The notes beneath the pieces are model-generated. The model did no database searches. It worked only from the letters and a program-made list of their open reading frames with translations, and was not told where the DNA came from. Below, piece after piece: positions 585-61,631 of a stretch of 64,000 nt of DNA. The translations under genes and the position numbers were made by a program. Positions within the stretch are counted from its first letter, which is position 1, and each line of letters opens with the position of its first letter. Origin of the DNA: Escherichia phage KKP 3954; sequence record OR067838.1. One strand, given 5' to 3'.

Positions 585-1559
585 ATGCAACTTGGTTTCC
601 CAATCATTGATGTAGTTGTTTTAGTTGGTATTTTAGCATTGTCTATTGGTATCGATTTCTTTGGTCATAAAGAGAATAAAGAAATTGGAATTAAATCTGC
701 TTTGCTTTGGTCTGTTTTTTGGATTGCTTTAGCTTTAGGATATTACGCATTCATTTGGGTAGAACATGGTAAAGAGTTTGCCGCGCTTTTCCTAAGTGGC
801 TATGTGTTGGAAAAGAGTCTTTCTGTAGATAACCTAATGGTGTTCATGGCAATTTTTGCAAGCTTTGGAATTAAGAGCACACATCTCCAACATAAGATTT
901 TACTTTGGGGGATTGCAGGAGCCATTGTCTTCCGAGGTATTTTTGTTGCAGCAGGCACCGCTTTGTTTAACCTTCATTGGTCGGTCCAAGTGTTGTTCGG
1001 TTTGATTGTAGCTTGGTCTGCCGTGGCTATCATCAAAGGTGGTGATGAAGAAGAGGATATCGATTACTCTAAACATTGGGCTGTTCGTTTAGTAGGTAAA
1101 GTTCTGCCTGTGCACAATGCACTGGATGGTGAAAAGTTCATCACCATTAAGAATGGTATTAAATATGCAACTCCTGCTCTTCTTTGTGTGTTTGTTATTG
1201 AGCTTACAGATATTGTCTTCTCTTTTGATTCAGTTCCGGCTGTGATCGGTGTGACACAAGAACCTGTGCTAGTTTATTCTGCAATGCTGATGGCTGTTCT
1301 TGGTTTACGTGCACTTTTCTTTGTGTTAAGTGTAGCTGTGAAATATCTGGTTCACTTAGAGAAAGCTGTTGCTGTGGTTCTGGTGTTTGTTGGTGCTAAA
1401 CTTATGTATCACCCGTTCGGTGAAACACTTCATGCCAAGTGGTCATTCCTCCCGCATGATATTTCCCCTAACGTAAGTCTGATGATTGTTCTAGGCACAT
1501 TAGCTCTTGGTGTTATTGCAAGCTTTATCTTCCCTGAAAAAGAAGAAGCTGCTGTTTAA
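585..1559 (+). CDS. terC: TerC family integral membrane protein
   Basis: Multi-TM protein with the two TerC signature segments LEKSLSVDNLMVF and ELTDIVFSFDSVPAVIGVT; RBS AAAGGAG upstream. Confidence 0.8.
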   Translation: MQLGFPIIDVVVLVGILALSIGIDFFGHKENKEIGIKSALLWSVFWIALALGYYAFIWVEHGKEFAALFLSGYVLEKSLSVDNLMVFMAIFASFGIKSTHLQHKILLWGIAGAIVFRGIFVAAGTALFNLHWSVQVLFGLIVAWSAVAIIKGGDEEEDIDYSKHWAVRLVGKVLPVHNALDGEKFITIKNGIKYATPALLCVFVIELTDIVFSFDSVPAVIGVTQEPVLVYSAMLMAVLGLRALFFVLSVAVKYLVHLEKAVAVVLVFVGAKLMYHPFGETLHAKWSFLPHDISPNVSLMIVLGTLALGVIASFIFPEKEEAAV

Positions 1560-1566
1560 TAGATGA

Positions 1567-1590
1567 GCCTCCTTCGGGAGGCTATTTTTA
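1567..1590 (+). terminator. rho-independent terminator (GCCTCC-TTCG-GGAGGC then T-tract)
   Basis: Perfect 6-bp GC stem with tetraloop followed by TATTTTTA directly after TerC stop. Confidence 0.6.
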
Positions 1591-1602
1591 TAGGAGAGAC
1601 TT

Positions 1603-1953
1603 ATGAGCAATTTTGATGAAATTCAAAAACTTGTTTGGGATTTACCTGGTGATGTTGATTACGTTTCAGATTATCTTTCAAAAGTTTACCTTGGGGTAAG
1701 CGTTATGATTGTGACCAAAGATCCAATTAACCTTCCTCCTAATGTAGTAGCTTGTTGTGGAAGTGGTTCAGGAGAGGTAGAACCTGTATCTCGTTGGGAA
1801 TTAACCAAGGCTGTTTCAAAACGAAACGGCGAAGTTTTGAATATTGATATCGAACAAATCTGGACTTCTCCAGCCGCCAAGTGGAATGATCCTAATGGTT
1901 GGGATTTGTTCTTCTGGGATAATGAAACTGATGATGAGGTATTTTTAAAATGA
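1603..1953 (+). CDS. hypothetical protein
   Basis: ORF track; RBS GGAGAG upstream of ATG. Confidence 0.5.
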   Translation: MSNFDEIQKLVWDLPGDVDYVSDYLSKVYLGVSVMIVTKDPINLPPNVVACCGSGSGEVEPVSRWELTKAVSKRNGEVLNIDIEQIWTSPAAKWNDPNGWDLFFWDNETDDEVFLK

Positions 1954-2136
1954 AATACTTGTTGGTTGTGTTTGAAAATATTTGTTTTGCAATAGGGTTG
2001 TTTGTTGTAATTTTTGTATTGACAAGCGTAATCAACGGCAGTAAAGTGAGTTTATACCGAGATGGAGAGCAGCTTTATTGCTTCTCTGGAGATTTCAAAC
2101 ACAGATGTATTAATAGTCAAAACGAGGAAAGCAAAT

Positions 2137-2574
2137 ATGAAAAAACTAGCCCTGATTTTAATTGGTTGTATCTTTTTAACAGCTTGCGAGGATGAAACAA
2201 ATCCTACACAATATCAACAACCTCCTCAACAATACGCTCAACAAGGATCTGACGGAGATACAACTATTATCAACAATGGTGGCGGTTCTAGTAGTAGCGG
2301 TGTTGGTGAGTTTGCTACAGGTATGTTGTTAGGACATATGATGAGCGGTGGTAGTAATCGTAGCGGCGGGGATTATAACGATAACAGAACGATTATTAAT
2401 AAACATTATAACACACCTAAACCGAAAACTAATTTTTATGGTAAGCCTAAACAAGAGATAAAAACTTATGAAAAGCCAAGACAAACTTTTAAAACAAATA
2501 GCAGCTATACAACTCGTAAATCTTACAATAGCCCTTTAAGTAAAAAGAGTTCATCTCGTAGCAAGCGACGTTAA
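2137..2574 (+). CDS. putative lipoprotein, Gly/Ser-rich (start at internal ATG of track ORF 2062..2574)
   Basis: MKKLALILIGCIFLTAC signal with lipobox LTAC; GAGGAAA RBS before ATG at 2137. Confidence 0.55.
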   Translation: MKKLALILIGCIFLTACEDETNPTQYQQPPQQYAQQGSDGDTTIINNGGGSSSSGVGEFATGMLLGHMMSGGSNRSGGDYNDNRTIINKHYNTPKPKTNFYGKPKQEIKTYEKPRQTFKTNSSYTTRKSYNSPLSKKSSSRSKRR

Positions 2575-2588
2575 TAAGGAGAAAAATA

Positions 2589-3182
2589 ATGACAATTTCT
2601 ATTCGTACTTCCATCGTAGGTGTTAAAAGGTTGCCTAATGCTTTGCAAATCACACGTGCTTTGAGGGATACGTTCTCTGCTGTGGATGAGCATAAGATGC
2701 TTGATAATCTGTCAAATTGGCCCTATTTTCATTATTTTAAAAATGAAGACGACGAGTTTATAGATGCTGTTTCTTATGGTTATGATTTCGGTAAGGAGGT
2801 TTCTCCTGAAGAATTTGTAGCTACGGTATTCCCAAATGGTTTCCCTACTCGCAGTAAACGTAAAAAAGGACCAAAAAACAAGAAACGTGCTACTAATAAA
2901 GCTACCATTTTCTTTACTGATGGGACACAGTATACGATTAAAGATTTTGAAGAAGTATCTTATACAGCAGGTGGGAATCTTTCTTTCTACACCATCAAAA
3001 AACAAAACTCTACGTTCAGCCATGTTTCTAACATGATTGAAATGTTAGTAGAAGATATTGAAAGCGTGGCTGTGTTAGGTATGCATAAAAGCTTTTTAAT
3101 TACAAATATTTCAGATTTCAGTGCACGTTTATCTGGCCCTGATTTTGAAGCCACGACCACGCATTTCACTTTTAAGGTGTAA
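2589..3182 (+). CDS. hypothetical protein
   Basis: ORF track; AGGAGAAA RBS upstream. Confidence 0.5.
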   Translation: MTISIRTSIVGVKRLPNALQITRALRDTFSAVDEHKMLDNLSNWPYFHYFKNEDDEFIDAVSYGYDFGKEVSPEEFVATVFPNGFPTRSKRKKGPKNKKRATNKATIFFTDGTQYTIKDFEEVSYTAGGNLSFYTIKKQNSTFSHVSNMIEMLVEDIESVAVLGMHKSFLITNISDFSARLSGPDFEATTTHFTFKV

Positions 3183-3185
3183 GTT

Positions 3186-3776
3186 ATGTATACCGAGAGA
3201 GACTTGCAACTCTTGTGGTGGGAAGTGATGCAGGAAATAAAAGAAGATTTTCCTGTTTACTACAACATGTTACGTGAAGCAGGATATAAAGCTTGTGTTA
3301 GAAACAAAGTGAATAACTCTTTCGGTTGGTGCAACTACCGAGATAAAATTGTTGTTGTAAATTGGCACTTGCATAAGAACTCTACAAGAGATATGATCGT
3401 GGATACAATGAAGCACGAAATTGCTCATGCTATTGATGGTTGTATGGGTAAGTTTAGTCGGCACGGTGCTCATTGGCAAAAACTGGCAGCAGAATTAGGG
3501 GCTAATCCTAAAGCCACTTCCAAAGAGCCGTTGAACCACGAATATAAATATGTTCTTGTTCTGGTAGATAGGTTTGCGACAAGATGTGTTAGAGGTTATA
3601 ATCGTAAACCTAATCGCATGTACCCAGGTAAGCAACCTAATATGTGGTTGAAATCAGATAAAGAAGGGACCGAAGGAAAATTATGGTTGTATAAATGGGA
3701 CGATTGGGTTAAAGTAGCTAAAGAATACGGTGTTTCACCATATATAAGAGATGCAGAAGAGGAGAATGAAGAATGA
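3186..3776 (+). CDS. SprT-like zinc metalloprotease domain protein
   Basis: HEIAH zinc-binding motif followed by HGAHW, as in SprT-like domains; translationally coupled (ATGA overlap) with next gene. Confidence 0.55.
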   Translation: MYTERDLQLLWWEVMQEIKEDFPVYYNMLREAGYKACVRNKVNNSFGWCNYRDKIVVVNWHLHKNSTRDMIVDTMKHEIAHAIDGCMGKFSRHGAHWQKLAAELGANPKATSKEPLNHEYKYVLVLVDRFATRCVRGYNRKPNRMYPGKQPNMWLKSDKEGTEGKLWLYKWDDWVKVAKEYGVSPYIRDAEEENEE

Positions 3777-4885
3777 CAAGTCCATTTTTAAAAGCAGCTA
3801 CTGGTGGTCAGAAGAAGCCTGAAATGAGCGTATTTGCTGCAACAACAGATGCAAGTAAATCTGTATTCGCTCCAAGCGTGTTAGATGCCAGTCCTGTTTA
3901 TGCACCAGCGGCACCGCAAGAAGTTCCAGTTTTGCCTTCTATGACCCGACAAGAGATCGAAGAGATTGGGGCAGAGGCAGGAACAACCTTGCGTTCCTTG
4001 AATGCCGAGGTATTAAAACATCAACGTAGTAATCAAGGAGATCAGATGAGTGAACGACTCACAGCTTTGATTAAACAGGCAAAACAACTTGATCCAAACT
4101 CTATTAAACAAAGCAAAGGTATTACTAAACTCATTAAAAAAGTTATGGGTATGAAAGAAGACCTGTTTGGGGAGTTTGATAATGTTAATAACCGTATTGA
4201 AGAGTTGGTAAAGAACCTTCAAATGGATATTCGCAAAGAAGAAGATTCCTTGGTATATCTTGAAAAGCTACATCAAGCTATTGGACAATATGCCGCAAGT
4301 TTGAACCGAGATATGCAGCTTCTAACAGCAACCTACGAAAAAGAAGAACAAGCTTTGGCTGCTCTTCCAGAAGATGCGGTAGAACAGCGACAAGTGATCC
4401 GAGATACTTTGGATCTTCTGGAGATTCGTATTGCGGATTTAAAAGCATTGCGCCTACTGTGTGTCCAAATGGGACCACGTGTGCAAGGTATGCAAAAAGT
4501 TTCTGCAAGCTTAATGCGATCTGCGCGTAACATAGTAAATAATGTTATTCCTGCTTACTCTGCTAACTTCTCAATGTATATTGAGAGCTTGCGTCAAATG
4601 AAAGCCGCAGAGACGCAGAATAACGTTCTTGATGAATTTAACCTGGCAATTAAACTGGGTAGCGATCTTGCCACACAGAATCAGATCGAAGCAGCAGCAC
4701 TGGCTAACCGTCAAGTGTTGGATATTGAAACTCTGCGTCACGATCAGGAAAACTTGGTTAAGATGTTGGAAGAAACTAACCGCATCAATACGGAAGCCCG
4801 TGCTGCTCGTGTTGATTATATTAATGAAGTTCAATCTCTGGAAGACGGGATGGTAGCTGCTGTGAAACGAGGGCTTGGTAAATGA
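3773..4885 (+). CDS. telA: TelA-like (toxic anion resistance family) protein, alpha-helical/coiled-coil
   Basis: About 370 aa, helical, Q/E/L-rich; size, composition and Ter-gene context fit the TelA/KlaB family; family assignment from memory, not searched. Confidence 0.5.
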   Translation: MTSPFLKAATGGQKKPEMSVFAATTDASKSVFAPSVLDASPVYAPAAPQEVPVLPSMTRQEIEEIGAEAGTTLRSLNAEVLKHQRSNQGDQMSERLTALIKQAKQLDPNSIKQSKGITKLIKKVMGMKEDLFGEFDNVNNRIEELVKNLQMDIRKEEDSLVYLEKLHQAIGQYAASLNRDMQLLTATYEKEEQALAALPEDAVEQRQVIRDTLDLLEIRIADLKALRLLCVQMGPRVQGMQKVSASLMRSARNIVNNVIPAYSANFSMYIESLRQMKAAETQNNVLDEFNLAIKLGSDLATQNQIEAAALANRQVLDIETLRHDQENLVKMLEETNRINTEARAARVDYINEVQSLEDGMVAAVKRGLGK

Positions 4886-5077
4886 GAATCCGTATCTATA
4901 TAATTGATGAAGACATTGGTGTCCGTTATGATGACGAAAAACGATTCGCACCGATGGGAGGCATATACCCCCAAGTGTTCTAGCAGTTTGTCGTGATTGT
5001 TATATTTATGAAGGTTGTCGTAACTTCCGTAAATTCGAACTCCTTGCAGATATTGACTTCAATGAGGAGGAGGAGTA

Positions 5078-5251
5078 ATGAAAATATTACGAGTGAATAT
5101 TGAAACTGCTTGGTGTGGATGTAATGAGGTTGTGGATATCGAAATTGAAGATGATATGTCTCAAGAGGATATAGAAGATCTTGCGCACGAAACCTTTCAG
5201 GACTATTGTAATTACGGGTTCCATATTTTAGAGGAGGAAGAGGATGTTTAA
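5078..5251 (+). CDS. small acidic protein (57 aa; below ORF-track length cutoff)
   Basis: ATG at 5078 preceded by GAGGAGGAGGAG RBS; ends at TAA 5249-5251, 4-nt overlap with next gene start. Confidence 0.4.
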   Translation: MKILRVNIETAWCGCNEVVDIEIEDDMSQEDIEDLAHETFQDYCNYGFHILEEEEDV

Positions 5252-5447
5252 CTACGATAACGATCCTAATATTATCCAGTTAACCCGACAAGAACTGATC
5301 ACAATCATTGAAGATGCTTTTATTGATGGCTGGAATACACAAGATAATGACTGGGGTGGACCTGAAGCTTTTCTAGAACATCATAAAGCGTATGGAGAAT
5401 TTTGCGAAACCACTGTAGCTCTTGATAATCTGAAGGAGGGTTTGTAA
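5244..5447 (+). CDS. small acidic hypothetical protein
   Basis: ORF track; GAGGAGGAAGAGG RBS upstream. Confidence 0.45.
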   Translation: MFNYDNDPNIIQLTRQELITIIEDAFIDGWNTQDNDWGGPEAFLEHHKAYGEFCETTVALDNLKEGL

Positions 5448-6010
5448 TGGGTTGTTTTAGTTTTTTGTGTAAGGAATCGGGCAAAGCTGCCCTTTCTACT
5501 TCTTTCGACGGATCACCTTGCTATCTCTTTCTTTTGAAGGATGGTGTTGTTATTGAAGAGATGTATGGCAACTATGATAGTTATGGTTGTGTTTTCTCTG
5601 GAAAGGAGGATGAAAATGGCGTTCGTGAGCGGTTCGAATGGGCTATGGATTGGGGTAAGGTTTGTGATTTAATGCATTCCTCGAATCCAAGGGACGGTAT
5701 CGCTATGGTGCTGGAAGAGTATTTTACAGGCGAGATCCCTACAGAACAATCTGACGGAGATCCTAATCAAGGTTGGGGTGATGGGGAAGAAGATCCAGAT
5801 TGTTTTTTCAGCACAGAAAAGAATAAGTTTAAACGTGTTGACAACCCTTATCACAAAGTGCATAATACTCTCATTGAAACAGAAGATAACAAGATGGAAA
5901 TTGAAGAAGATGATCCTCTTGTAACACTTCCTATAAGCGAGTTGCAAAAGATCACTAAAGAAGCTTACGATTTGGGCTTCAAAATTGGTAAAGGAGGTAT
6001 ACGTGTTTAG
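5447..6010 (+). CDS. hypothetical protein
   Basis: ORF track; AAGGAGG RBS; coupled to flanking genes. Confidence 0.5.
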   Translation: MGCFSFLCKESGKAALSTSFDGSPCYLFLLKDGVVIEEMYGNYDSYGCVFSGKEDENGVRERFEWAMDWGKVCDLMHSSNPRDGIAMVLEEYFTGEIPTEQSDGDPNQGWGDGEEDPDCFFSTEKNKFKRVDNPYHKVHNTLIETEDNKMEIEEDDPLVTLPISELQKITKEAYDLGFKIGKGGIRV

Positions 6011-6281
6011 ATTCAATATTCAAGAAGAAAAGTGCCAGGATTTACCTATTGCTTTCGAAGATCTTGGCATAGGGGCCACATTCATGTATTATGATGCCTA
6101 TGAAGACGCAGGGTTGGATACCTACCGTAACTTGGTGTTCATTAAAAATTCCACAAACAGTGCGATCTGTATTAATGGATCACTAGCACAACGAGGCTAT
6201 ACTCATTGCATCCCACCAGATACAAATATGGTGGAAGTAGATTTAGAAGTTACCAATATTACACTTAAGAAGGAGAAATAA
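6003..6281 (+). CDS. hypothetical protein, paralog of 7305..7574 (GTG start after AAGGAGG)
   Basis: GTG at 6003 five nt after AAGGAGG; C-terminus VEVDLEVTNITLKK matches LEVELTVTGITLK of 7305..7574. Confidence 0.5.
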   Translation: MFRFNIQEEKCQDLPIAFEDLGIGATFMYYDAYEDAGLDTYRNLVFIKNSTNSAICINGSLAQRGYTHCIPPDTNMVEVDLEVTNITLKKEK

Positions 6282-6282
6282 T

Positions 6283-7079
6283 ATGTCCGAGAAAATCAGC
6301 CTGAAAAAACGTCAAGAAAACCTTGCTTTCTCTCTGAAAAAGAATAAGAACCTGAACGAAGGTAAGATTGTTCTTCGTGTAGCATGTGCTCTAGATATTT
6401 CTGGTAGTATGCATGGTCTATATACTCGTGGGGTAGTGAGTGATTTTGTAGGTAAACTGCTTCCTTTTGGTATGCTGTTCGACGATAATGAACAAATTGA
6501 CATGTGGGCCTTCAATACGAGTTCTCAAGAGCTTACTCCAGCAACAGCAGACGTTTACGATGACTACGTTGGTAAATGTATGCGTAATGTTCGTATCGGA
6601 GGTGGAACAAATTACGCCCCTGTAATGGCAGATATCTACGATGAGTATTTTGGCACTGTTACCAAATATGTTACCACTAAACAAGTGGTATACAAGAGGA
6701 GGCTCCAAAGAAAGGCTTCTTTAATCGTCTGCTTGGTAAAACTGAAACAGTATCGGTAGAGCGTGAAAAAGTTGTAGCTGTATCTGAACCAGGTGCTGAT
6801 GTTACTCCTGGCGTTGTATTCTTCCAGACAGACGGTGAGAATGGTGATCCTAGTGCTGTTCGTCGTCTTATTGAAGAGAATAAGAATAAGCCTATCTATT
6901 GGTTCATGGTTGGCGTTGGTAATGAGAAGTTCAGCTTCCTGAAAGAACTGGCAAATGCTTATGACAATGTTGGTTTTATTGGCATTAAAGATTTAGACTT
7001 GACAGATTCAGAGCTTTATGACAAACTCTTATCTGAAGAGTTCGGAGAGTGGGTTGTTAAAGTAGGTGCTAAAAAATGA
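6283..7079 (+). CDS. vWA domain protein with TerD-like N-terminal motif; reading frame broken near 6690-6710 (track ORF 6283..6759 continues in another frame to 7079)
   Basis: MIDAS motif DISGSM and GGGTNYAP in first frame; the vWA TDG segment (VVFFQTDGENGD) lies in the downstream frame, which has no start codon of its own until about 6907. Confidence 0.55.
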
Positions 7080-7324
7080 TCGACGAGCTTGCCTCTCAAG
7101 TCGTAGAAAATTATTGGCGCGAGAGAGAAGCTTTCATTATGCGCAGTCTCAAAGAATATTTCATTGGGACTGTGAGGATGGAAGATATTGTAAGTAGAGT
7201 AGAGATTCATGTATGGCCTGATTATGAAGAATGGGTTGACAAAGAAAATGAAAATGCTATAATTCTTCGTATATACAAACCGGAGATAACATTAGGAGGA
7301 AGAAGTGTTAAACTTCGAAATTGA
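7076..7324 (+). CDS. hypothetical protein
   Basis: ORF track; ATG overlaps preceding stop. Confidence 0.45.
   Translation: MIDELASQVVENYWREREAFIMRSLKEYFIGTVRMEDIVSRVEIHVWPDYEEWVDKENENAIILRIYKPEITLGGRSVKLRN
7236..7263 (+). promoter_or_regulatory. near-consensus sigma70 promoter (TTGACA, 16-nt spacer, TATAAT) inside 7076..7324, upstream of TerD cassette
   Basis: TTGACA 7236-7241 and TATAAT 7258-7263 read directly. Confidence 0.5.
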
Positions 7325-7574
7325 TGAGCAAAAAGTAAATAAACGATGCCTTACCATTAAAGATTTGGATGTAGGAGATACTTTCGTCTATGAAAATGCA
7401 TTTGACGAAAATGGTTTAGACCTTAGTGAAGTAATTGTTTATTTAAAAGTAGATGATGGGGAAAATGATTATTCTGCTGTAGAACTAAACCATCATGCAC
7501 AATTAGTAGCAATCCAAAACACATCTAAGCTTTTGGAAGTAGAATTGACTGTAACTGGTATTACACTTAAATAA
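7305..7574 (+). CDS. hypothetical protein, paralog of 6003..6281
   Basis: GTG start after AGGAGGA; shared C-terminal motif with 6003..6281. Confidence 0.5.
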   Translation: MLNFEIDEQKVNKRCLTIKDLDVGDTFVYENAFDENGLDLSEVIVYLKVDDGENDYSAVELNHHAQLVAIQNTSKLLEVELTVTGITLK

Positions 7575-7589
7575 TAGAGGAGACAAAAG

Positions 7590-8192
7590 ATGACTGATAA
7601 AATTTCCCTGAAAAAAGGCTCTAGCGAAAAAATTTCCCTGAAGAAAGTTGCTCCGGCTCTGAAAGAACTGCGCCTGGAATTCTCTTGGAAATCTGATTCT
7701 AAACTGGATCTGGATGTAAGTGCACTGGTTTGTCGTCATAATGCCGCTGGCAATCCTGAAATGCTGTCTGCACGTCATCTGGTTTGCTATGCTAACAAGT
7801 TTGATCCTGAACGTTCTACCTTCGCTGGTGACGATGTTCGTGATGGAACTGGCAGCATGGAGCAGATTGATATTACTCTGGCTAAAATCTCTCCTGATGC
7901 ACAAGAGATTGCCTTTGTTCTGACCATTGATGATGATACAGGTCTGAAACGTTTTGGTCATGCTTCTGAAGGTATGCTTAAAATCTTCGACTCCGAGCGC
8001 AATGTGGAAATTCTGGATTTTGACTTCCTGGCTCCTGAAGTAGCTGGCAACACAATCTGCCACGTGGCTTCCTTGGTTCGTGAAGATGGGGAATGGAAAC
8101 TGAAAGCATATGGTGTAGGTAAAGCTGGTCTGGATATTTGCGATGTGGTGATGGCCTTCGGTGGTAAAAAAGAATGGTATGAATGTCCATAA
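7590..8192 (+). CDS. terD: TerD family protein
   Basis: Aligns by eye along its length to E. coli TerD: duplicated ISLKK N-terminus, GDDVRDGTGSMEQIDITL matching the GDNRTGEGDGDDE calcium-binding region, GEWKLKAYGVGKAGL near C-terminus. Confidence 0.85.
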   Translation: MTDKISLKKGSSEKISLKKVAPALKELRLEFSWKSDSKLDLDVSALVCRHNAAGNPEMLSARHLVCYANKFDPERSTFAGDDVRDGTGSMEQIDITLAKISPDAQEIAFVLTIDDDTGLKRFGHASEGMLKIFDSERNVEILDFDFLAPEVAGNTICHVASLVREDGEWKLKAYGVGKAGLDICDVVMAFGGKKEWYECP

Positions 8193-8210
8193 TAATTAAC
8201 AAATGATTTT

Positions 8211-8234
8211 GAGGGGGAGAAATCCCCCTCTTGC
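8211..8234 (+). terminator. GC-rich hairpin (GAGGGGGA-GAAA-TCCCCCTC) after TerD
   Basis: 8-bp perfect stem read directly; weak T-tract. Confidence 0.5.
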
Positions 8235-8259
8235 AATAAAGCCTCTATCGTGTTATACT
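8231..8259 (+). promoter_or_regulatory. sigma70-like promoter (TTGCAA, 17-nt spacer, TATACT)
   Basis: Hexamers read directly; intergenic, upstream of 8292 gene. Confidence 0.5.
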
Positions 8260-8291
8260 AGAAGTTCGTTAACTTAAAAAGGAGGCAAAAT

Positions 8292-8813
8292 TTGCTGATA
8301 AAAAACTTTGTAACAGTTGCGTTACTATCCTTAACTGCTTTTACATTTACACCTGTTGTGGCGAAAGCCGAAGCTGCAAACGTAAAAACCGCTAAAGTAG
8401 TTCACAAATATACAAAGCAATATAATGATAAAATTCTATTAGCTTGTGCAATTTACGCAGAAGGTCGCGGTCTGGGTAAAAAGGGAATGAATGCCGTTGG
8501 GAATGTGGTAATCAATAGAAGAAATGATGCCTACTTTCCTAACACAGTCAGAGGAGTCTTGTTCCAGAAAGGGCAATTCTCATATGCGAAAACTTTTAAC
8601 GTAACAGAGAAAGATAAGTGGCAGGAAGCAAAAGCAATAGCGGAGCGTTTACTTTATTTAGAGAAACATTTTCCTGAATTGCGGTCTGTTTTAGATGTTA
8701 CTAAAGGTGCTCTATACTTCAAGAAGCGGAATATAAAGACACACTGGGAGCGTGATATGCGTCTTGTTTATCGAGATAAAGTGCATGGTTTCTATCTACC
8801 AAAGGGGAGTTAA
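8292..8813 (+). CDS. secreted cell wall hydrolase, SleB-like (Hydrolase_2) domain with N-terminal signal peptide; candidate endolysin
   Basis: Signal peptide then AIYAEGRG...VINRR...FQKGQFS, typical of SleB-type hydrolases; TTG start 7 nt after AAGGAGG. Confidence 0.6.
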   Translation: MLIKNFVTVALLSLTAFTFTPVVAKAEAANVKTAKVVHKYTKQYNDKILLACAIYAEGRGLGKKGMNAVGNVVINRRNDAYFPNTVRGVLFQKGQFSYAKTFNVTEKDKWQEAKAIAERLLYLEKHFPELRSVLDVTKGALYFKKRNIKTHWERDMRLVYRDKVHGFYLPKGS

Positions 8814-15261: not shown

Positions 15262-16056
15262 TTGAGCAAGTTGAACACACTTGATCAATATTACACTAAC
15301 CCCGCTTATGCGGGGTTCTTATGTGATAAGATCAAAGAAATTTTTGGAGAGGAAGCTAACTACGTAGAACCATCTGCGGGAGAAGGAGCTTTCTCTTCTT
15401 GTTTTAAAAACATAACTTCTTTTGATATTGACCCTAAGTTTGAAGATTGTATTGAGGCAGATTTTTTAGCTCAATCTGTTGAGTCTGTTGGTAGTGTAAC
15501 TGCTTTTGTCGGTAATCCTCCATTTGGAAAAAATGCTAGTCTTGCCATTAAATTCTTTAACCATTGTGCTGAAATGCTGGATAACGAAGGTGGTATTTGT
15601 TTTATCTTGCCTCGCACATTTCAAAAAATCTTTTTTGCACACAAACTAAATCCCCATATGCATCTTCTTTACGAAGAAGAATGTCCAAAAGGATCTTTTA
15701 TTCTTCATGGAGAACCTTGGGATGTTCCTTGTGTATTCCAGATATGGATTAAACGCAACGAGAAGCGTTCTCCCGTTGTTTTAGGAGAGAATCGACTATT
15801 CGTATTAGGTAACAGTAAAGACTACGATATAGCCGTTAGGAGAGCGGGAGCAAGTGCAGGTAAAGTGTTATCAGAAGAAGATTCTTTATCTGAAGCATCT
15901 ACCTATTTTTTAAAAGCCTTGACTTCTGATCTTAAAACGCGTATCATTGAGGCTTACCCGTTACTTAAAGCTGAAGCTAGTAAAACTGCGGGAGTAAGAA
16001 GTTTAAGTTTAAAAGAACTTCAGTGGGTTCTGGAGAACATTAGAAAGGAGGAATAG
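15262..16056 (+). CDS. DNA N6-adenine methyltransferase
   Basis: AdoMet motif EPSAGEGAF and catalytic NPPF motif; TTG start after AAGGAGG. Confidence 0.65.
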   Translation: MSKLNTLDQYYTNPAYAGFLCDKIKEIFGEEANYVEPSAGEGAFSSCFKNITSFDIDPKFEDCIEADFLAQSVESVGSVTAFVGNPPFGKNASLAIKFFNHCAEMLDNEGGICFILPRTFQKIFFAHKLNPHMHLLYEEECPKGSFILHGEPWDVPCVFQIWIKRNEKRSPVVLGENRLFVLGNSKDYDIAVRRAGASAGKVLSEEDSLSEASTYFLKALTSDLKTRIIEAYPLLKAEASKTAGVRSLSLKELQWVLENIRKEE

Positions 16057-18653
16057 TGAGTAAGTTTACATGGGATATTGAAGCAAACGGATTGTTGAAT
16101 AATGACACTATTGATTATTTAGCTAGTCCTTATCGTCTCAAAGACACATTTCAAATGCACTGTATTGTCTTAGAGAACCATGAAACAGGAGAAATAGTAG
16201 CTTTCCACGATGGCCCTAAATACATCTTTGATGGGCGTCCTTATGAAGAGTCAGATGGTAAATACACATATGTTCTTAAAGAGTATGTGGCGCAAGATTA
16301 CACACATTTTCAACTAAAAGATTTCCCAGACTTTATTAATCATGAAGGTTATTTTAAAGATAAGCCTGAATATCTGGTTGAAATGGCTGTGGCTCACAAC
16401 GGTATCAACTATGACTGGTTGGCTACAAAACTGTTTTATGGTTTAGATTACAGTGTTAAATATAATACGTGGGGCAAAAATAAGGTAAAACTTATTGACT
16501 CCTTGATTTTGAGTAAAGTGTTAAACCCAGATCGAAAGATTGAGGGCAAATCAGGACATAGTTTGGCAGCACTTTCTCGAAAGGCAGGGGGTGATGTAAA
16601 AATAGATTTCCGTAAAGAGATTCCAGAAGAAGATCGATTTAAGACTTTTGCTGCTGATATGCTTTATTACTGTATCTATGACAACAAAGCCAATACGAGC
16701 GTATATAATTACCTTATGGAAGAATGGGGTGATTATGATAAATGGGAAGGTCCATTTGAACTTGAACAACGTGTAGCAGACATTATTACACGCCAGGAAC
16801 ACCGTGGGTTTGCTTTTAACATGAAGCAAGCAGAAGAGAACCTTGCTTTTTTGGATGCAGAAATGGAGCGTCTTCGTTTACTCGTTGAGCCTATTTTGCC
16901 ACCTAAACCAGCAACAAAAGGTTATCTTAAGGCTTTTATTCCACCTAAGTTGCAAATTAAAAAGAACTTAGAGCCAACTAACCATATGATCAATTTTGCT
17001 AAGAAACATGATGGTCATTTGGAAGAGAGGGATGGAGATTGGTGGTTAGTGATGTTGGGGAAAGAATGGAAACTGCCAGTTGCAGCAGATGAGCCTTTGT
17101 GTGATCCTAATATCCCTGCAACATTGAACGATACTACCCATATTAAAAACTGGCTTGTAGGATTAGGTTGGGTACCGTCTGAATATAAAGATAAAGACTT
17201 GACTCTTAAATCTGGCACCAAGATTAAAAAGAGCGAGGAAGAACTTCAGAAAGGTATTCGAGCTTACGTTGAGCAAACTCTATCTTCTAATTTTTGTCAG
17301 GATCGTTGTGATCATCTGGAGTGCACACCGGAAACCTTGGAGAGGAAGATTCAAGAGCGTATAGCAAAAGGTAAAGGTCGCGGTCTTAAAGTATTGACTA
17401 ACCCATGTTTTACCAAAGGTCAGGAAAAAGAAATTTGTCCTAACCTGCAAGCTTTGGGTGAGAAATTTCCTTATGCTACACAGATTGTAGAATACTTAAC
17501 GTATAAACACCGTAGGAACTCTATTTTAGGTGGTGGTGCCGATTGGGAAGAAGACGAAGAAGATCAAGAATACGATAAAGGTTTCTTAGCCGCAGTAAGG
17601 GCGGATGGTCGTATTCCTACCCCAGCCGCTACATGTGATGCTGCAACCTCTCGTATGAAGCATAGATCTGTAGCTAATATTCCTCGTGTCACATCTTTGT
17701 TTGGATGGGAGATGCGTAACTTGTTTGGTGTAGAGGTTCCTAAATACTTCCAGATTGGCTACGACTTCGACTCTTTGGAAGCAAAAATTGAATCACACTA
17801 CTGTTGGCGGTACGAGCCGGAGCCACACGAATATTGTAACGCTCTGTTGTTAGAGAAACCTAACGATGTTCACACAATGATGGCAAAACGTATCACTGAA
17901 ACTATTGGACGTAAATTTGAACGTAGTCCTGCTAAATCTGTTAAGTATGGTATTACCTATGGTGCACAAGCCGACAAGGTTGCTAAAACAATTGGTAGCG
18001 ATAAGTTTACAGGTCAGTTGGTGTTCGATGCTTTCTGGGAAGCTGCCTTCCCACTGGCACGTCTTAAAGAACGTTTAAACGATTTCTGGGTTAAAACTGG
18101 TAAACAATATGTTTTGGGTATTGACGGTCGTAAGGTTCCTACTCGTTCTGCTCACGCGATTCTTAACTCTTTGTTCCAAAGCGGTGGGGTTATCTGTGCT
18201 AAACGTGCAATGGTTATTTATGACGACATGATCGAAGAAGAAGGGCTAAGTGTTGACTTCTTTAAAGATGACTGGAAGAATAAAGACTTCGTGCAACAAA
18301 TGATTGCATACCACGATGAAGCCCAGCTTGAAGTTTCTCGTAACCTTGTAGAATTCAAATGGTTTTCACCTGAATCATTAGGTTGGAAGAAAGTAGACGA
18401 TCCTGAAGAACAAAAGAAAATTGATAAAGAATGCCTTGCTAAAGTCGAAGAATGGAAGCATAATAAGGAAAAAGAGACAGGGCAAATTTGGGCTAACATT
18501 CATGAATCTCCCAAAGGTGGATGGTTTACAGCCTATAGTCGGGCAGGTGAACTTGCTGCTTTAGCTGTTACTAAGGCTGGAGAATTTTACAATCTTAACG
18601 TTCAGCTTACTGCCGGATATGATGTGGGTAATTCTTGGGCGTCCTGTCACTAG
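16056..18653 (+). CDS. DNA polymerase, family A, with 3'-5' exonuclease domain
   Basis: 865 aa; N-terminal exo motif WDIEANGL; size and context typical of phage PolA; GTG start after AAAGGAGG. Confidence 0.85.
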   Translation: MSKFTWDIEANGLLNNDTIDYLASPYRLKDTFQMHCIVLENHETGEIVAFHDGPKYIFDGRPYEESDGKYTYVLKEYVAQDYTHFQLKDFPDFINHEGYFKDKPEYLVEMAVAHNGINYDWLATKLFYGLDYSVKYNTWGKNKVKLIDSLILSKVLNPDRKIEGKSGHSLAALSRKAGGDVKIDFRKEIPEEDRFKTFAADMLYYCIYDNKANTSVYNYLMEEWGDYDKWEGPFELEQRVADIITRQEHRGFAFNMKQAEENLAFLDAEMERLRLLVEPILPPKPATKGYLKAFIPPKLQIKKNLEPTNHMINFAKKHDGHLEERDGDWWLVMLGKEWKLPVAADEPLCDPNIPATLNDTTHIKNWLVGLGWVPSEYKDKDLTLKSGTKIKKSEEELQKGIRAYVEQTLSSNFCQDRCDHLECTPETLERKIQERIAKGKGRGLKVLTNPCFTKGQEKEICPNLQALGEKFPYATQIVEYLTYKHRRNSILGGGADWEEDEEDQEYDKGFLAAVRADGRIPTPAATCDAATSRMKHRSVANIPRVTSLFGWEMRNLFGVEVPKYFQIGYDFDSLEAKIESHYCWRYEPEPHEYCNALLLEKPNDVHTMMAKRITETIGRKFERSPAKSVKYGITYGAQADKVAKTIGSDKFTGQLVFDAFWEAAFPLARLKERLNDFWVKTGKQYVLGIDGRKVPTRSAHAILNSLFQSGGVICAKRAMVIYDDMIEEEGLSVDFFKDDWKNKDFVQQMIAYHDEAQLEVSRNLVEFKWFSPESLGWKKVDDPEEQKKIDKECLAKVEEWKHNKEKETGQIWANIHESPKGGWFTAYSRAGELAALAVTKAGEFYNLNVQLTAGYDVGNSWASCH

Positions 18654-28818: not shown

Positions 28819-29139
28819 CTACTGGAGAATACCTTGCATAGGGATTGGGTTTACCAATGTAGCATTAGGAGCATAATAATAACCGCTCAATACCCCATTC
28901 TGGAAATAACGCAGTTGGTTAAAAACCGTTTCATTTGTGCCTTGCGCCCAATCCAATGGACTTTTAAAGAAAAAGTTGTCAACAAGGGCTTTTCTCAGGG
29001 TTGGTATCAACCCTGATTCTGTTTCAATACTCTCTGTAGCACTTCCATTAATAACATCATGGAGTTGGTTAGACGAGAAAATAACCAGATCTACGCCCTG
29101 TTCAAGAGACGTTGCTGGATATGTTGGGAATGTTGCCAT
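28819..29139 (-). CDS. tailspike N-terminal domain (likely same gene as 26084..28801, separated by a -1 frame break)
   Basis: ATG with AAGGGG RBS; downstream ORF frame is open from 28862. Confidence 0.5.
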   Translation of the reverse strand: MATFPTYPATSLEQGVDLVIFSSNQLHDVINGSATESIETESGLIPTLRKALVDNFFFKSPLDWAQGTNETVFNQLRYFQNGVLSGYYYAPNATLVNPIPMQGILQ

Positions 29140-33224: not shown

Positions 33225-33466
33225 TAGTCATCCTCTTTGGTAGATTGTGATCTGCCCCAACGTAAATCAATAAGATTTTTCATGAGGCGAGAAGGGGTTA
33301 TCATGAAAACAAAAGCCCAACCCATCCATTCAGGAATTTCTTTTTCTATTCCTAAAAAGATAAACATGCCTGTCATAACCGACATGCCTACAGCGTTCCA
33401 GACTTTAGTAGAACTGACTTTATTATCAGGATATATACAGAACATACCTATTAAAAATTTTCTCAT
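33224..33466 (-). CDS. small membrane protein (2 predicted TM helices)
   Basis: ORF track; hydrophobic. Confidence 0.4.
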   Translation of the reverse strand: MRKFLIGMFCIYPDNKVSSTKVWNAVGMSVMTGMFIFLGIEKEIPEWMGWAFVFMITPSRLMKNLIDLRWGRSQSTKEDD

Positions 33467-33768
33467 AGTGCGTTCTCATTACTTTTTAAATCACGAGATA
33501 CAGCTAATTCCCCAAGGTCTACAGAACCCGCTGAATGCACAAATACAGCAGCACTAAGACTAATGGCAGTAGTACCTGGGGCAATATCAGCAGGTAGGGA
33601 ATACGCCCTTTGCGTCTCCTTGTCATAGATAACCTTATACCCACCCAAATCCACACCAACTGAGAAATAAACAACTTCTGATTGCTTAACTCCGAAGTGA
33701 CGGGCTATAGCTTGCTTGTTAGTTTGTTTTGCTACCGAGCCTGTTGGCTGAGTAAACATTTCATTCAT
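33463..33768 (-). CDS. hypothetical protein
   Basis: ORF track. Confidence 0.45.
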   Translation of the reverse strand: MNEMFTQPTGSVAKQTNKQAIARHFGVKQSEVVYFSVGVDLGGYKVIYDKETQRAYSLPADIAPGTTAISLSAAVFVHSAGSVDLGELAVSRDLKSNENAL

Positions 33769-33820
33769 GGATTAATCCTCGTGTTTTAGTTTTAAATGCC
33801 CCGCCGAAGCGGGGTTTTGT

Positions 33821-36217
33821 TTAGTCGGTTATGCTTGATATCGCTGCATACTGGTTCACGGATACAGGAGTTGCGTCTATTCTAGTGTTTCTCGATGATG
33901 ACCTAACCATCAGAAACACCATAGCGCGTCCAGATCCGTCAACATACTTGAGTATCCCTGTTGTATTTGCGGATATTTGTTGTAGGAATATCTGTCCTTG
34001 CGTTGTCGATGTAATAACAGCCGGAGTAGACACCACGGCTGAACCGATTATAAATACACTTATTTTTCCGGATAATTGATACAAAAGCGCCGCAGTTCCA
34101 GAAAACGTACCGGATGCCAATGTAACATTTATATCCCCCGACAACCGGATATACGCGCTTGGTGATGCCGTTATTGTTACGGATGAAGCGTTTATACGAA
34201 ACCCTTTATAACTGGTTACGACTCTGGTAAGTGAGACAGACCCTGTTACATTTATAACGAAGTCGCCGCGAAAACCACCTTTTTGTCTAACGATGTTTAC
34301 AATTTCTATCGCCCGCTCCAGAGATGCTACAGCCCTACCAGAAACAAATCCGGAGTTCTCATCGTTACCAGTTGCAGGGTTAACAAAGATTTCTCTCGTG
34401 AAATCCATCCCTAAATAGTTTACAGCAGACCAGTTACCAATACTTCCATAATCAGTAATAGCAGGGCTTACATTCTCTACGCGCAATGGTGCATTAGTGA
34501 ATGTTCCACCAACCATCCCATTAGAGAACCCTCCGACTGGGGGCATACCACGAGCAATAACTTTACGCTCAGTACCATCTTGACCACAGAAGAAGAACCC
34601 ATAGGAAAGACAGGTATAGTTAATTTGCGACCAGTTATCCAAATCTATATAACTGTTAGCTATCACAAAATTGTGACGCATAATCATATTGCCGCCTACA
34701 TCTTCTACGTGCGGCTTTCGTAAGTGAATGTCTGTATCGTTAAATGCGAACGCCTGCCTCCACCATTCAACGACAGGTTCGTCGATAACAAAATCACGAA
34801 CTGTATCGCAAGTTATACCAGTATTCTGATTTTTTCCTTCAGCAGTCCATGCCGTTGCTGGATAGACTAATTCTGGATTGTCGGCGTTAGCACCAACTCG
34901 TGCAACATAAGGATTGGTTATACGTAGCCCGGCGTTTGCCTTATAAAGATGGATACCCTGACGCATAGCCAGCACTTTAGGGGAACGGAAATCAGCACCC
35001 CATGACCATCTAAAATACATTCCTAACATGGGTGCTGATACCAGATTACCGCCACGTTCTGTGATTCCTATACTGGTTTTTGTACCTTTACATCCAGGGG
35101 ACATTGAGAAGTTAAGACCTATCTTGACACCGCCAGAACATGCTACTGATAGGTCGAATAGGAATCCATCTGACATCGTGATATAACCGTTCACATCGGT
35201 AATATCGTTGTCAGGCGTGCCGATTAAAGCGCCAGTTTTCCTCACATAAGAAATACCTGACAACTCAAAAACAACTGGTTCTGTAGCAGCGGTGTTTAAA
35301 TCCGTCGGAGCATAATAAAAACCAACTGGTATTTGTCTGTTGAAATAGGTCTGCGCACCAACCTGATCGTAATGTACATGACGCATAAGCAGGAGCGGAA
35401 CAGCAGACTCTACACGAGAAGTAAACACCACATGAACTGGTTTAAGGCTATATTTATATGCCTCCAAAGCTGTAGCGTTGGCGTAAGATGATGCCATACC
35501 CGCTGTGATATAAGAGTTCAGAGCGTTGATTTTTTCTGTGCCTGTTCCGGCGAAATCATCAACGTAAAGCTCATTAATCAGTTTCGCATACAATCCATTC
35601 ACGATTGGCATCGGCGTGACTTCGGAAACAATCTCCCATCTGGATCCACCAGTTGACACTTTCTGACCCAGAATAAGAGTTGCATCAGCAGCCATAGCCT
35701 GGATATTACTAAAGCCGTGCACATAACGATCTCCACCCTCACTAGAGATGTTTTCTTTAAGAGATGCATCGCCAACACTAACCCACGCTCCTAATTTAAC
35801 CTCACCTGTGCTATCTGGAGTTGAACCAGTTGGAACTATTTTTGGTAGGTCACTATCCCAAGTGTAGCACTGACCACCTGCAATATACCAAACAGCATCA
35901 GTAGATGTGGATACAGTAGCCCCCTCTTCAAAACTACCATCAACAAGTGTTAACCCCGCTTCAGCAAGACTACGACGCCACTGTTCACGATCATTAAGAA
36001 GATTGTTATTCAACTCTTCCTGAACAGTATTACCATTTGAGGATTGTATTAAATCTGCTCCATCTGTATCTTTCAACTGGGTGGCTAAAACCACCCCAGT
36101 GTCAGTAAGAAAGTTGGAAACTGTGCTTTTAACAGTTTTATCAGGTTGATCTAAAACCAGGTAATCTGAACCATTAACTTTTGATGTTTCGGGTAAATTA
36201 GTAATTGTAGTTGACAT
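33821..36217 (-). CDS. tailspike/tail fiber protein
   Basis: 798 aa; GGAG RBS; Gly/Ser/Thr-rich body consistent with a beta-structure enzyme domain. Confidence 0.55.
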   Translation of the reverse strand: MSTTITNLPETSKVNGSDYLVLDQPDKTVKSTVSNFLTDTGVVLATQLKDTDGADLIQSSNGNTVQEELNNNLLNDREQWRRSLAEAGLTLVDGSFEEGATVSTSTDAVWYIAGGQCYTWDSDLPKIVPTGSTPDSTGEVKLGAWVSVGDASLKENISSEGGDRYVHGFSNIQAMAADATLILGQKVSTGGSRWEIVSEVTPMPIVNGLYAKLINELYVDDFAGTGTEKINALNSYITAGMASSYANATALEAYKYSLKPVHVVFTSRVESAVPLLLMRHVHYDQVGAQTYFNRQIPVGFYYAPTDLNTAATEPVVFELSGISYVRKTGALIGTPDNDITDVNGYITMSDGFLFDLSVACSGGVKIGLNFSMSPGCKGTKTSIGITERGGNLVSAPMLGMYFRWSWGADFRSPKVLAMRQGIHLYKANAGLRITNPYVARVGANADNPELVYPATAWTAEGKNQNTGITCDTVRDFVIDEPVVEWWRQAFAFNDTDIHLRKPHVEDVGGNMIMRHNFVIANSYIDLDNWSQINYTCLSYGFFFCGQDGTERKVIARGMPPVGGFSNGMVGGTFTNAPLRVENVSPAITDYGSIGNWSAVNYLGMDFTREIFVNPATGNDENSGFVSGRAVASLERAIEIVNIVRQKGGFRGDFVINVTGSVSLTRVVTSYKGFRINASSVTITASPSAYIRLSGDINVTLASGTFSGTAALLYQLSGKISVFIIGSAVVSTPAVITSTTQGQIFLQQISANTTGILKYVDGSGRAMVFLMVRSSSRNTRIDATPVSVNQYAAISSITD

Positions 36218-36225
36218 TTTTACTC

Positions 36226-38379
36226 CTATATATAAAATTTTTGTGTTGTTACTAAATCTTCTCCAGATTTAGTGGCTAATGTAATTCCACTTATGGTGGC
36301 AATCTCAACATTTACCTGTTTAAGAGTGATATCCTGTAAATAAACGTTCAAAGGCACGTTACCCATATAGAAAACTTGGGATTGAGAATTAACTACCGTG
36401 ATAGAATCATGCATTATTTGAGGATAGGCCCATATATATTGTGTAAGTCCGTCAAACTTATTGGCGTTCAACACTATGTTACCTATAATCATCTTCCAAA
36501 GATATGTGCGGTAGTTTGATTTAGGATCAAAGCCATACAAAGGTGCAAGAGTAGCATCTGGAACAAAACCTGAAAGGTAGTGAATATCAGAATATTCAAA
36601 ACCTAATTTTTCATGTGGTATAGTAATTGCATCAAATGCTTTCATCATCTTACCTTCCAGAAGCCAGTCATAACACTCTGAACAGTAAAAATCAAAAGCT
36701 TCAGGAATGTAGTAATCAGACGGGAAGTTAACTTTCTCCATCAAACCGTTGCCGATAATTGATGGCAAGAACGGAAGCAATGTTACCTTGGCTCCTGGGT
36801 AAGTTGCTCTAGTATCTGTTGCAAACTTTGTAACTCTTAATCCTAGTTTACGAGACAAAAATGCATAGTATTCGTCAAACGGCGTTCCTGTTTTATAATT
36901 ATCTATTGTTCCTGCATCTTGTGCAAATAAACCTGTTTCTGTGTTGAATGCCAGTTTGGTAGTGTAATCATATATGCAAGGCATTTTACTTGCTGTATTA
37001 TACCACCACCAAGGCTCACCAATTTGAATGACAACTGGAATATTATTAGCTTGCGAAATAGATGCTATTTTATTAATAACATTTTGCAAATATTCCATAC
37101 CTTCGTCAATAGTTGGAGACAATACGTAACTAGGAGGCTCATACCCTGTTGCTGCAAGAGCATCGTTCCAATCATGCTGGACCCATTCTACAGGACAAAC
37201 TGTGCTCATCAACTCAAAACTTAAAGAGTTCATTATTGTGTAACCCTTCTCGTTCGCTATAGCATGGAAACTATTTAGCCAAGCTTCTGTAGCGGGATTC
37301 AGGAAGACAGATCTATTTAAAGCCCAAGATGTTCCGTTCCATGAGAACTCATAATAGTGAGACATTCCATTGTAATGGTTAATCATTCCACGATAACCTA
37401 GCGCATATGTATTATAAATAACTCTCTCTGGAGTCAGGTTATACATATCATCATAAGATGTGCACATGCGAATATCATGTTCAGGCTGGACAAGGTTGCT
37501 GACTTTCATCATACTATAACCAGAAGTAGGTTCAAGAAGAGTGAAAGTAAACCAAGCCTCTTGACTGTCAATAGGTACAATCTCTTCTATTTCTTCATAC
37601 CTCGTTGTAATCAAAGAGAAGAAAATATCATCTACAGCACTCATATCCAAAGGAATATCATTATTAGGACCAGAGAAGATATTACCAAAATCTAATTTGA
37701 TTGTGGCTGTTTTACCATCTTCTGAAATATCTGAAGCGTAGAATCCTAAACTGACATAATGAACACTTTTATCCAAGAGAGTTACAGTCAAAGTCGGCAC
37801 CAAAGGTTCTTCTTTAAAACCTGGCATGTTTTGACTAATTTCCATTTTAAACCAAAGTTTCTCTGAACTTAAATCTGTGTGGGGTAAATACCCAACACCT
37901 TTATGGTCATATTTGTCAACTGTGCTCCAGATAACCCCTGCCAAACCTGCTGCTGTTCTGTTTACAAATCTTGCAGTAAAAGAGTCTCCATGAGATACAA
38001 TAGAACAACTTTCCGTTGCTTGAGAATCTATTGTCCAATACATAGGAGAGAACATTTTAACGTCTTTTGTAGTCCAAGTTATTGGAGTAGTATTTTCTTG
38101 GATCGTAGTTATAATACAATTGATGGTCGTTTCAACCATCATGTTATTTTGACTAATCCCTGAAACTTGGAGGGAGAAGTTAAGATCTATTGAGTTCTTT
38201 GGTCGTTCAAATACTTCAACCACAATGGTAGCAGAATCAGCATCATCAGGGAACACAAGTGTTCCCGATTTTGCAATATAATCTCTACCAGCGACTGCTG
38301 TTCCATCAACAGTCGTGTAGTTAAATGAACTCGCATTTACTCTCTTGTCTCGCGTGACAGTAAATATAGCTTGTTTCAT
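36226..38379 (-). CDS. tail fiber-associated protein
   Basis: 717 aa; AAGGGG RBS. Confidence 0.5.
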   Translation of the reverse strand: MKQAIFTVTRDKRVNASSFNYTTVDGTAVAGRDYIAKSGTLVFPDDADSATIVVEVFERPKNSIDLNFSLQVSGISQNNMMVETTINCIITTIQENTTPITWTTKDVKMFSPMYWTIDSQATESCSIVSHGDSFTARFVNRTAAGLAGVIWSTVDKYDHKGVGYLPHTDLSSEKLWFKMEISQNMPGFKEEPLVPTLTVTLLDKSVHYVSLGFYASDISEDGKTATIKLDFGNIFSGPNNDIPLDMSAVDDIFFSLITTRYEEIEEIVPIDSQEAWFTFTLLEPTSGYSMMKVSNLVQPEHDIRMCTSYDDMYNLTPERVIYNTYALGYRGMINHYNGMSHYYEFSWNGTSWALNRSVFLNPATEAWLNSFHAIANEKGYTIMNSLSFELMSTVCPVEWVQHDWNDALAATGYEPPSYVLSPTIDEGMEYLQNVINKIASISQANNIPVVIQIGEPWWWYNTASKMPCIYDYTTKLAFNTETGLFAQDAGTIDNYKTGTPFDEYYAFLSRKLGLRVTKFATDTRATYPGAKVTLLPFLPSIIGNGLMEKVNFPSDYYIPEAFDFYCSECYDWLLEGKMMKAFDAITIPHEKLGFEYSDIHYLSGFVPDATLAPLYGFDPKSNYRTYLWKMIIGNIVLNANKFDGLTQYIWAYPQIMHDSITVVNSQSQVFYMGNVPLNVYLQDITLKQVNVEIATISGITLATKSGEDLVTTQKFYI

Positions 38380-44120: not shown

Positions 44121-44535
44121 TTACGCCTGATTAGGTTTGTTATCAATATAAACCAATACAAAACGTTTATCTCGACCTGTAGTTGTATACCCAGGACGAC
44201 CATTAATCTTAACTGTATCTACTATATACAATTGACCATCTGGCACACTTTCAAGATATTTATAAGGTTTAAGAAGATCTAAACCATTTGTAACTTTGAA
44301 ACTTATACTTGGATCATCTCCAGATAATCCTATCTGACATTGCCAAGACTCGTCCCTAGTGTTCCACCTTAAACGAATGTCATAATCAACTCCATCCAAT
44401 GTAACTGTATATGTTTGATCAGGTATACTCTTCAGTTTTCAGATACCATGCAAAATAAGTAGAATGGTCCTCCAGATAAACTGCACTGTAGCCTGTATTA
44501 CTTGTAGACCTTGTTGTTTTAGAATAAGTTGTCAC
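44121..44535 (-). CDS. hypothetical tail protein; track ORF 44121..44399 (TTG, no RBS) plus probable N-terminal extension from GTG 44535 (RBS GGAGG), joined by a +1 frame break at a T4 run
   Basis: GTG 6 nt after GGAGG; downstream frame open across junction; break at plus 44436-44439. Confidence 0.4.
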
Positions 44536-53973: not shown

Positions 53974-54117
53974 GGTTGCTGTTTTAACCAGGTTAACTTC
54001 ACGTATACACAGTGTCCAAGGTCAGAGCTAAACACTCCACCCAGAACCAGGTGTCCGAATTCCTGGCGAGAGTTAGATAAAGTAATTCCTTTAGCCATTT
54101 AATTTAATCTCCTAAGA

Positions 54118-60913: not shown

Positions 60914-60938
60914 GCAAAAAGCCTCCAATAAGGAGGCC
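60914..60938 (-). terminator. rho-independent terminator closing the tRNA cluster
   Basis: GCCTCC-TTATT-GGAGGC then TTTTT on minus strand. Confidence 0.55.
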
Positions 60939-61053
60939 AATAAATACTGTTAATTTGAAATGCTTTATTATGATTGTGCGTTAAGGAGTCGCACCCCTCC
61001 ATCTTAGAAGGAACCAGGCAAGGTCTTCAAAGATACCGCTGGCAAGCGATATT

Positions 61054-61132: not shown

Positions 61133-61138
61133 ATCATG

Positions 61139-61208: not shown

Positions 61209-61210
61209 AC

Positions 61211-61284: not shown

Positions 61285-61290
61285 TTTAAT

Positions 61291-61367: not shown

Positions 61368-61372
61368 TTATA

Positions 61373-61620: not shown

Positions 61621-61631
61621 CCTATATATTT

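Follow-up and report, generated by a model that had tools for sequence, protein, structure and literature searches.

In the 64,000-nt stretch of the Escherichia phage KKP 3954 sequence (OR067838.1) analyzed here, hereafter the window, the MIDAS motif of a vWA gene lies in one open reading frame and the TDG segment of the same domain lies in another. This arrangement raises the question of whether the break is a biological feature, such as a recoding site, a pair of genes or a pseudogene, or a flaw in the sequence as written.

Judged by its sequence, the window is part of a Phapecoctavirus genome, that of a phAPEC8-like E. coli myophage, and a megablast search with positions 5900-7700 gives vB_EcoM_Schickermooser as the best match (99.3%). 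The closest known counterparts of the interrupted gene include Schickermooser_00201, ESCO13_00211 and phAPEC8 gp203, which are vWA-TerF-like genes of Ter-type stress clusters. The corresponding cluster in the window, at 585-8813, is conserved across the genus (Table 1), and in Schickermooser a PRTase-like gene is annotated just upstream of it. At 4954-4973 the window and Schickermooser differ by 1 nt beside a C5 run (Schickermooser reads CATATA[T]CCCCC), so that a 65-aa hypothetical gene falls into two frames by comparison with that phage; this difference is not private to the window in the four-genome alignment described below, and natural variation, as opposed to error, may account for it.

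Table 1. Coordinates of the vWA-TerF-like gene, of its Ter-type neighbours and of the lesions discussed in the text, as positions in the window; names of the split structural genes are taken from PHROGs.
Feature	Position	Strand	Details
TerC	585-1559		Ter-type cluster
SprT-like	3186-3776		Ter-type cluster
TelA	3773-4885		Ter-type cluster
Whole vWA-TerF-like gene	6283-7079	+	Ter-type cluster; 797 nt here, 795 nt (264 aa) in all relatives; from alignment and Pfam
Upstream ORF	6283-6759	+	158 aa; authentic vWA sequence is residues 1-136
MIDAS motif D-x-S-x-S (DISGS)	6394-6408	+	within ALDISGSM; read from sequence and translation
Downstream open frame	6681-7079	+	-1 relative to the start; authentic vWA residues 137-264 from 6693 on
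2-nt insertion	6689-6692	+	TATA, TA in relatives; conserved GTAC becomes GTATAC (6688-6693); frame -1
TDG segment of the vWA fold (FFQTDGENGD), with the distal MIDAS Asp	6828-6836	+	read from sequence; Pfam match of the C-terminal half
Sole start-codon-initiated ORF in the downstream frame	6906-7079	+	ATG, 57 aa; too short for a vWA half
TerD	7590-8192		Ter-type cluster
Cell-wall hydrolase, SleB/CwlJ-like	8292-8813		Ter-type cluster
+AA inside a GTAC site (GAGTACC to GAGAATACC)	28828-28829	-	splits 1017-aa tailspike / colanic-acid-degrading gene
GTAC to GTATAC, +TA	39299-39302	-	splits 958-aa tail protein gene at residue 655
GGGTAC to GGTATAC, net +1	44424-44425	-	splits 137-aa virion structural protein gene
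T6, T5 in relatives (homopolymer +1)	47052-47057	-	splits tape measure gene at about residue 100
Extra A directly 5' of GTAC, site kept	48706-48707	-	3' end of tail sheath gene
Extra G directly 5' of GGTACC, site kept	49748-49750	-	splits tail sheath gene at about residue 110
GTAC to GTATAC, +TA	54004-54007	-	splits head decoration gene
Lost GTAC sites (examples)	8410, 21393, 21564, 22017, 23604, 24596, 27615, 27636, 29159, 30049, 30647, 31127, 31165, 32938, 42655, 45681, 57351, 58680		

To place the break within the gene, both halves were compared with Pfam and with intact orthologs. The N-terminal half matches PF10138 (vWA-TerF-like) over profile positions 2-98 (E 2e-16, 61.1 bits) and the C-terminal half over positions 92-194 (E 2e-19, 70.9 bits), both above the gathering cutoff of 29.4 bits; since the two halves match adjoining parts of the model, they belong to a single domain, which changes frame near 6690. 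By tblastn, ortholog residues 1-136 correspond to window 6283-6690 with 100% identity, and residues 136-264 to window 6690-7076 in frame 3. The last 22 residues of the upstream ORF (YKRRLQRKASLIVCLVKLKQYR) are out-of-frame read-through that ends at a TAG codon (6757-6759). The downstream frame, bounded by a TAA just before it (6678-6680) and a TGA at its end (7077-7079), encodes VVFFQTDGENGD. The MIDAS D-x-S-x-S and the TDG loop residues are thus both there, but in different frames, and the domain is not encoded as one continuous polypeptide in the window, being broken at 6689-6692, after residue 136. In the relatives the domain is continuous, as it is in the window after in-silico removal of the TA, and phrog_5359 spans the full length of the intact ortholog.

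Nucleotide alignment with the relatives defines the lesion as an insertion of two nucleotides, TA, which shifts the frame by a net -1. Locally, the relatives read GGTACAA and the window GGTATACAA; over a longer context they read AAGTGGTACAAGAGG and the window AAGTGGTATACAAGAGG, and this is the only length difference in the alignment. Deletion of the TA restores a 795-nt ORF that is identical to Schickermooser_00201 at 795/795 nt, leaving 0 further differences from the closest relative, and the restored gene shares with Schickermooser_00201 both the DxSxS MIDAS and the TDG, as well as its neighbourhood of TerC, TelA and TerD. As written, the window ORF differs from Schickermooser_00201 in being interrupted after residue 136. 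Without the TA, the vWA-TerF-like gene is an ordinary gene in one piece, 264 aa long, with nothing unusual about it. The first-pass annotation had described one vWA domain divided by a 1-nt, -1 frame break at 6690-6710. The single domain is confirmed by the Pfam matches of both halves and by the orthologs, the position agrees with the insertion at 6689-6692, and the net -1 shift stands; the size of one nucleotide was wrong.

The same annotation called for a comparison with orthologs, in which a pair of separate genes, or a MIDAS half that is a complete protein by itself, would have argued for a natural arrangement. We find neither. The gene is annotated as one 795-nt CDS in Schickermooser, ESCO13 and phAPEC8_ev052, and among the phage records with a tblastn homologue 204 of 205 cover at least 80% of the vWA protein in one place; all 30 sampled tblastn rows, which range from Phapecoctavirus and Justusliebigvirus to jumbo phages of Caulobacter and Rhizobium, are a single piece. 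That the vWA gene is naturally split into two genes whose products assemble has the two open frames themselves as its only support, and its probability is close to nil: the orthologs are single ORFs, the Pfam model spans the junction continuously, and inspection of the downstream frame found no ATG, GTG or TTG upstream of 6906, within one nucleotide or so of the start at about 6907 given earlier, from which 57 aa are left. The two-gene split was rejected on the ortholog evidence and the missing start codon.

A split that is bridged during expression would also yield the full-length protein. Programmed -1 ribosomal frameshifting or transcriptional slippage would have to occur within 6681-6759, where the two frames overlap by 79 nt, and this overlap does contain an AGGAGG (6696) and a run of four A (6738). 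In its two overlapping frames and net -1 shift the window resembles dnaX and the G/GT frameshift of the tail assembly chaperones; unlike these systems, it lacks a slippery heptamer and a stimulatory structure, and its arrangement is not conserved. As already stated in the first-pass annotation, no classical slippery heptamer is present: none of the form X_XXY_YYZ lies in phase in the 6679-6759 overlap, where the AAAA at 6738 is the longest run. The RNA at 6743-6830, with a minimum free energy of -16.3 kcal/mol and z = +0.73 against shuffles, is no more stable than shuffled sequences. The AGGAGG, 37 nt away from the AAAA, codes for the conserved QEEA in intact orthologs; with a shift at 6738, about 17 conserved residues would give way to out-of-frame sequence; and the two-frame arrangement occurs in 0 of the 60 listed close relatives, the orthologs being unbroken. 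Searches for a slippery site, a homopolymer, a Shine-Dalgarno-like stimulator and an RNA fold having given no support, recoding was rejected, and we regard it as having next to no chance of being correct.

A genuine and very recent TA-duplication frameshift, which would make the gene a young pseudogene, fits several features of the locus. TA to TATA can come from slippage, the truncated ORF keeps the DxSxS and loses the TDG half, and the gene is part of an accessory Ter-type cluster, with TerC, TelA and TerD as neighbours, so its loss could be tolerated. The allele itself was, however, found in no other sequence searched. The insertion is missing from the three relatives aligned base by base and from every one of the 60 listed Phapecoctavirus records, each of the latter spanning 139 nt against the 141-nt query, and the best identity across the site among these 60 is below 99%. 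Exact-pattern scans for the insertion allele returned zero matches in viral, metagenome and genome contig collections, the viral zero being uninformative, as the wild-type pattern without the TA also scores zero there and that collection holds no close relatives. The 158-aa truncated product is not on record in the public gene index. The lack of any other difference in 795 nt from the closest relative also counts against this explanation: with 795/795 identity after deletion of the TA there is no pseudogene decay, and a decaying pseudogene was rejected in the comparison with Schickermooser, which revealed no additional disabling or relaxed-constraint substitutions. Finally, the 64 kb contain two more copies of this TA-in-GTAC lesion, one in the gene for the 958-aa tail protein and one in the head decoration gene. 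An identical lesion at two other sites makes an independent real event at the third, in the vWA gene, unlikely, and we consider inactivation of the gene by a recent mutation unlikely overall.

The repeated lesion was placed in context with a four-genome alignment of the window, Schickermooser, 10C3_SA_NWU and ESCO13, in which each genome was scored against the other three. The window has 14 private indels, none a multiple of three, against two for each relative. Eight of the 14 touch a GTAC site or the 2 nt on either side of it, a zone that makes up 0.74% of the alignment columns (binomial p = 3e-14), and three lie in homopolymer runs of at least five bases; the private +1 homopolymer indels are in runs of T5, G5 and T4 at 47052, 48675 and 1585, respectively. 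Insertion of TA into GTAC occurs three times in the 64 kb (6688, 39298 and 54003). The indels split the genes for the sheath, tape measure, tail protein, tailspike, decoration protein and a virion structural protein (Table 1), so the sequence as written cannot be that of a viable phage; the lesions are almost certainly consensus errors. The two insertions that leave the GTAC intact (48706 and 49748) fit base-calling noise better than site loss, since selection to remove the motif would not yield them. In the tRNA-cluster region, window 60940-64000, there are several private indels of 1-2 nt (61899, 63127 and 63987); the megablast match is broken at 60937-60969 in this region, and tRNA content varies among the relatives, 10C3 having one extra annotated tRNA-Tyr.

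The anomaly at GTAC extends to substitutions. In a whole-window comparison with Schickermooser (loci L004 and L005), 15-16 of its 45 GTAC sites are still intact in the window, where the overall substitution divergence is about 2%. Thirteen of the 34 GTAC sites common to the other three genomes are intact in the window, compared with 13 of 14 in each relative scored in the same way (Fisher p = 3e-7). GTAC is the lone outlier among all 256 4-mers: its retention is 0.38, whereas the median is 0.96 and the second-lowest 4-mer still reaches 0.85. Private substitutions within a GTAC of the other genomes number 20 in the window and one per relative, and the roughly 20 in the window convert the motif to ATAC, GTAT or GTGC (examples in Table 1). 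No flanking-base rule separating lost from kept sites was evident, save that all three GGTACC sites, which are conserved in all four genomes, are kept.

The coding effects of these substitutions set them apart from the remaining divergence. Relative to Schickermooser, synonymous and non-synonymous changes stand at 12:13 at GTAC and at 958:145 elsewhere (p = 6e-6), the latter ratio being the signature of real divergence under purifying selection. The GTAC substitutions are almost always C to T at the C, on either strand, even where this replaces Thr by Ile or Met, or Cys by Tyr, and although the site could have been abolished by a silent change at the third position of the adjacent NGT codon; the 13 non-synonymous changes, of these same types, fall in tail, baseplate and terminase genes. 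We conclude that the roughly 20 GTAC substitutions probably reflect miscalled bases at a motif that was modified.

A real purge of GTAC has to be weighed against this conclusion. Under such a purge, a GTAC-cutting restriction system would have selected for point mutations and left scars of cutting, fill-in and religation, with the vWA gene as collateral damage. Enzymes that cut at G^TAC, such as CviQI/Csp6I, produce a cut whose fill-in and religation convert GTAC to GTATAC, a gain of TA. The three insertions in the window, each giving GTATAC (6688, 39298 and 54003), match this product exactly, 21 of the 34 conserved sites have been lost, and the motif is depleted in all relatives as well as in the window. 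In the Phapecoctavirus genomes examined, GTAC is 3-4-fold under-represented, with 62-68 sites observed and 206-245 expected in about 65 kb, which suggests long-term avoidance of a GTAC-specific restriction activity in the genus; in the window itself the depletion is about 8-fold. The fill-in product nevertheless leaves unexplained the roughly 20 C-to-T substitutions, the GTAC-preserving insertions and the homopolymer errors. A fill-in frameshift in the structural genes of the window would be lethal, as would the frameshifts in the sheath, tape measure, tail protein and decoration genes in general; two GTAC-adjacent insertions do not destroy their site, half of the substitutions are non-synonymous despite the synonymous routes available, frameshifts in homopolymers unrelated to GTAC co-occur, and all three GGTACC sites have survived. 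Selection against GTAC as the cause was ruled out by the ratio of synonymous to non-synonymous changes, the site-preserving insertions and the lethal frameshifts. A purge accounting for the lesions is highly improbable, and it is very unlikely that the GTAC changes are even partly real, with a lineage purged by a G^TAC-cutting system, GTATAC motifs as in-vivo scars and a truly inactivated vWA gene. The evidence favors a weaker variant of this idea, and suggests that the lesions are artefacts that reveal a previously undescribed GTAC-specific DNA modification of the phage or its host.

Taken together, these data indicate that the vWA frame break is almost certainly a sequencing artefact and not a biological feature, and that it is very likely a consensus base-calling error at a GTAC motif that was probably modified, one of many errors at GTAC and in homopolymers. 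As expected of an artefact, the differences are concentrated in one short motif beyond the background, they ignore coding constraint and break essential genes, and they co-occur with homopolymer-length errors. We propose that the sequenced DNA carried a base modification at GTAC, acquired from the propagation host or made by the phage, and that sequencing was done on a platform sensitive to modification, such as nanopore, with inadequate polishing. A base caller would mis-read the k-mers around the modified base, and a spurious TA placed in a GTAC site of the consensus would then give rise to the frame break in the vWA gene. On this reading the TA is one of about 30 GTAC-centred miscalls, comprising C-to-T changes on either strand and insertions of 1-2 nt in or next to the motif; like the homopolymer-length errors, these occur in this assembly alone. 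A full-length vWA protein of the normal kind is most likely made by the real phage, and recoding would not be involved.

Nanopore consensus errors fall mainly into two classes, those at methylation motifs and those in homopolymers; they appear when native DNA bears a modification that was absent from the training of the base caller, and motif errors hit only some occurrences of a motif and can extend to miscalls of neighbouring bases (PMC6591954; PMC12392509); those at the Dcm motif CCWGG in nanopore assemblies are an example (Wick et al., 2019, PMC6591954). The errors in the window are similar: they are concentrated in one short palindromic motif, hit only some of its copies, spill over to adjacent bases and occur alongside homopolymer-length errors. 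They differ from the Dcm errors in their motif, GTAC, for which we infer both the platform and the modification. GTAC is not known to be a standard methylation motif of E. coli K-12. No GTAC-specific methyltransferase was identified; the ORF at 15262-16056 has no Pfam hit and is homologous to a gene annotated as an N6-adenine methyltransferase in relatives, which speaks neither for nor against a phage-encoded source of the modification.

In annotation, the split vWA gene should accordingly be entered neither as a gene pair nor as a pseudogene or recoding site. Spurious frameshifts of this kind affect six or more structural genes in the window, and the same explanation covers the frame breaks in the tailspike, tail protein, tape measure, sheath, decoration and virion structural genes; about 13 apparent replacements of Thr by Ile or Met, or of Cys by Tyr, at GTAC sites are likewise probably not genuine. 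These findings change little for the biology of the vWA gene, which belongs to the phAPEC8-type Ter cluster as an ordinary and intact member. The error pattern suggests that the sequenced DNA was modified at GTAC, which is of note given the genus-wide avoidance of this motif.

Two further differences among these genomes were observed. Window 33418-36330, between a baseplate-J-like gene and tail protein genes, has no megablast match to Schickermooser; 10C3_SA_NWU has two CDS at this position and Schickermooser one, and the segment probably reflects the exchange of a receptor-binding module. The DNA polymerase CDS of 10C3_SA_NWU (L007, 13335-16667) is 3333 nt long compared with 2598 nt in Schickermooser and in the window (16056-18653), and the insertion of about 735 nt is possibly an intein or a fused mobile element.
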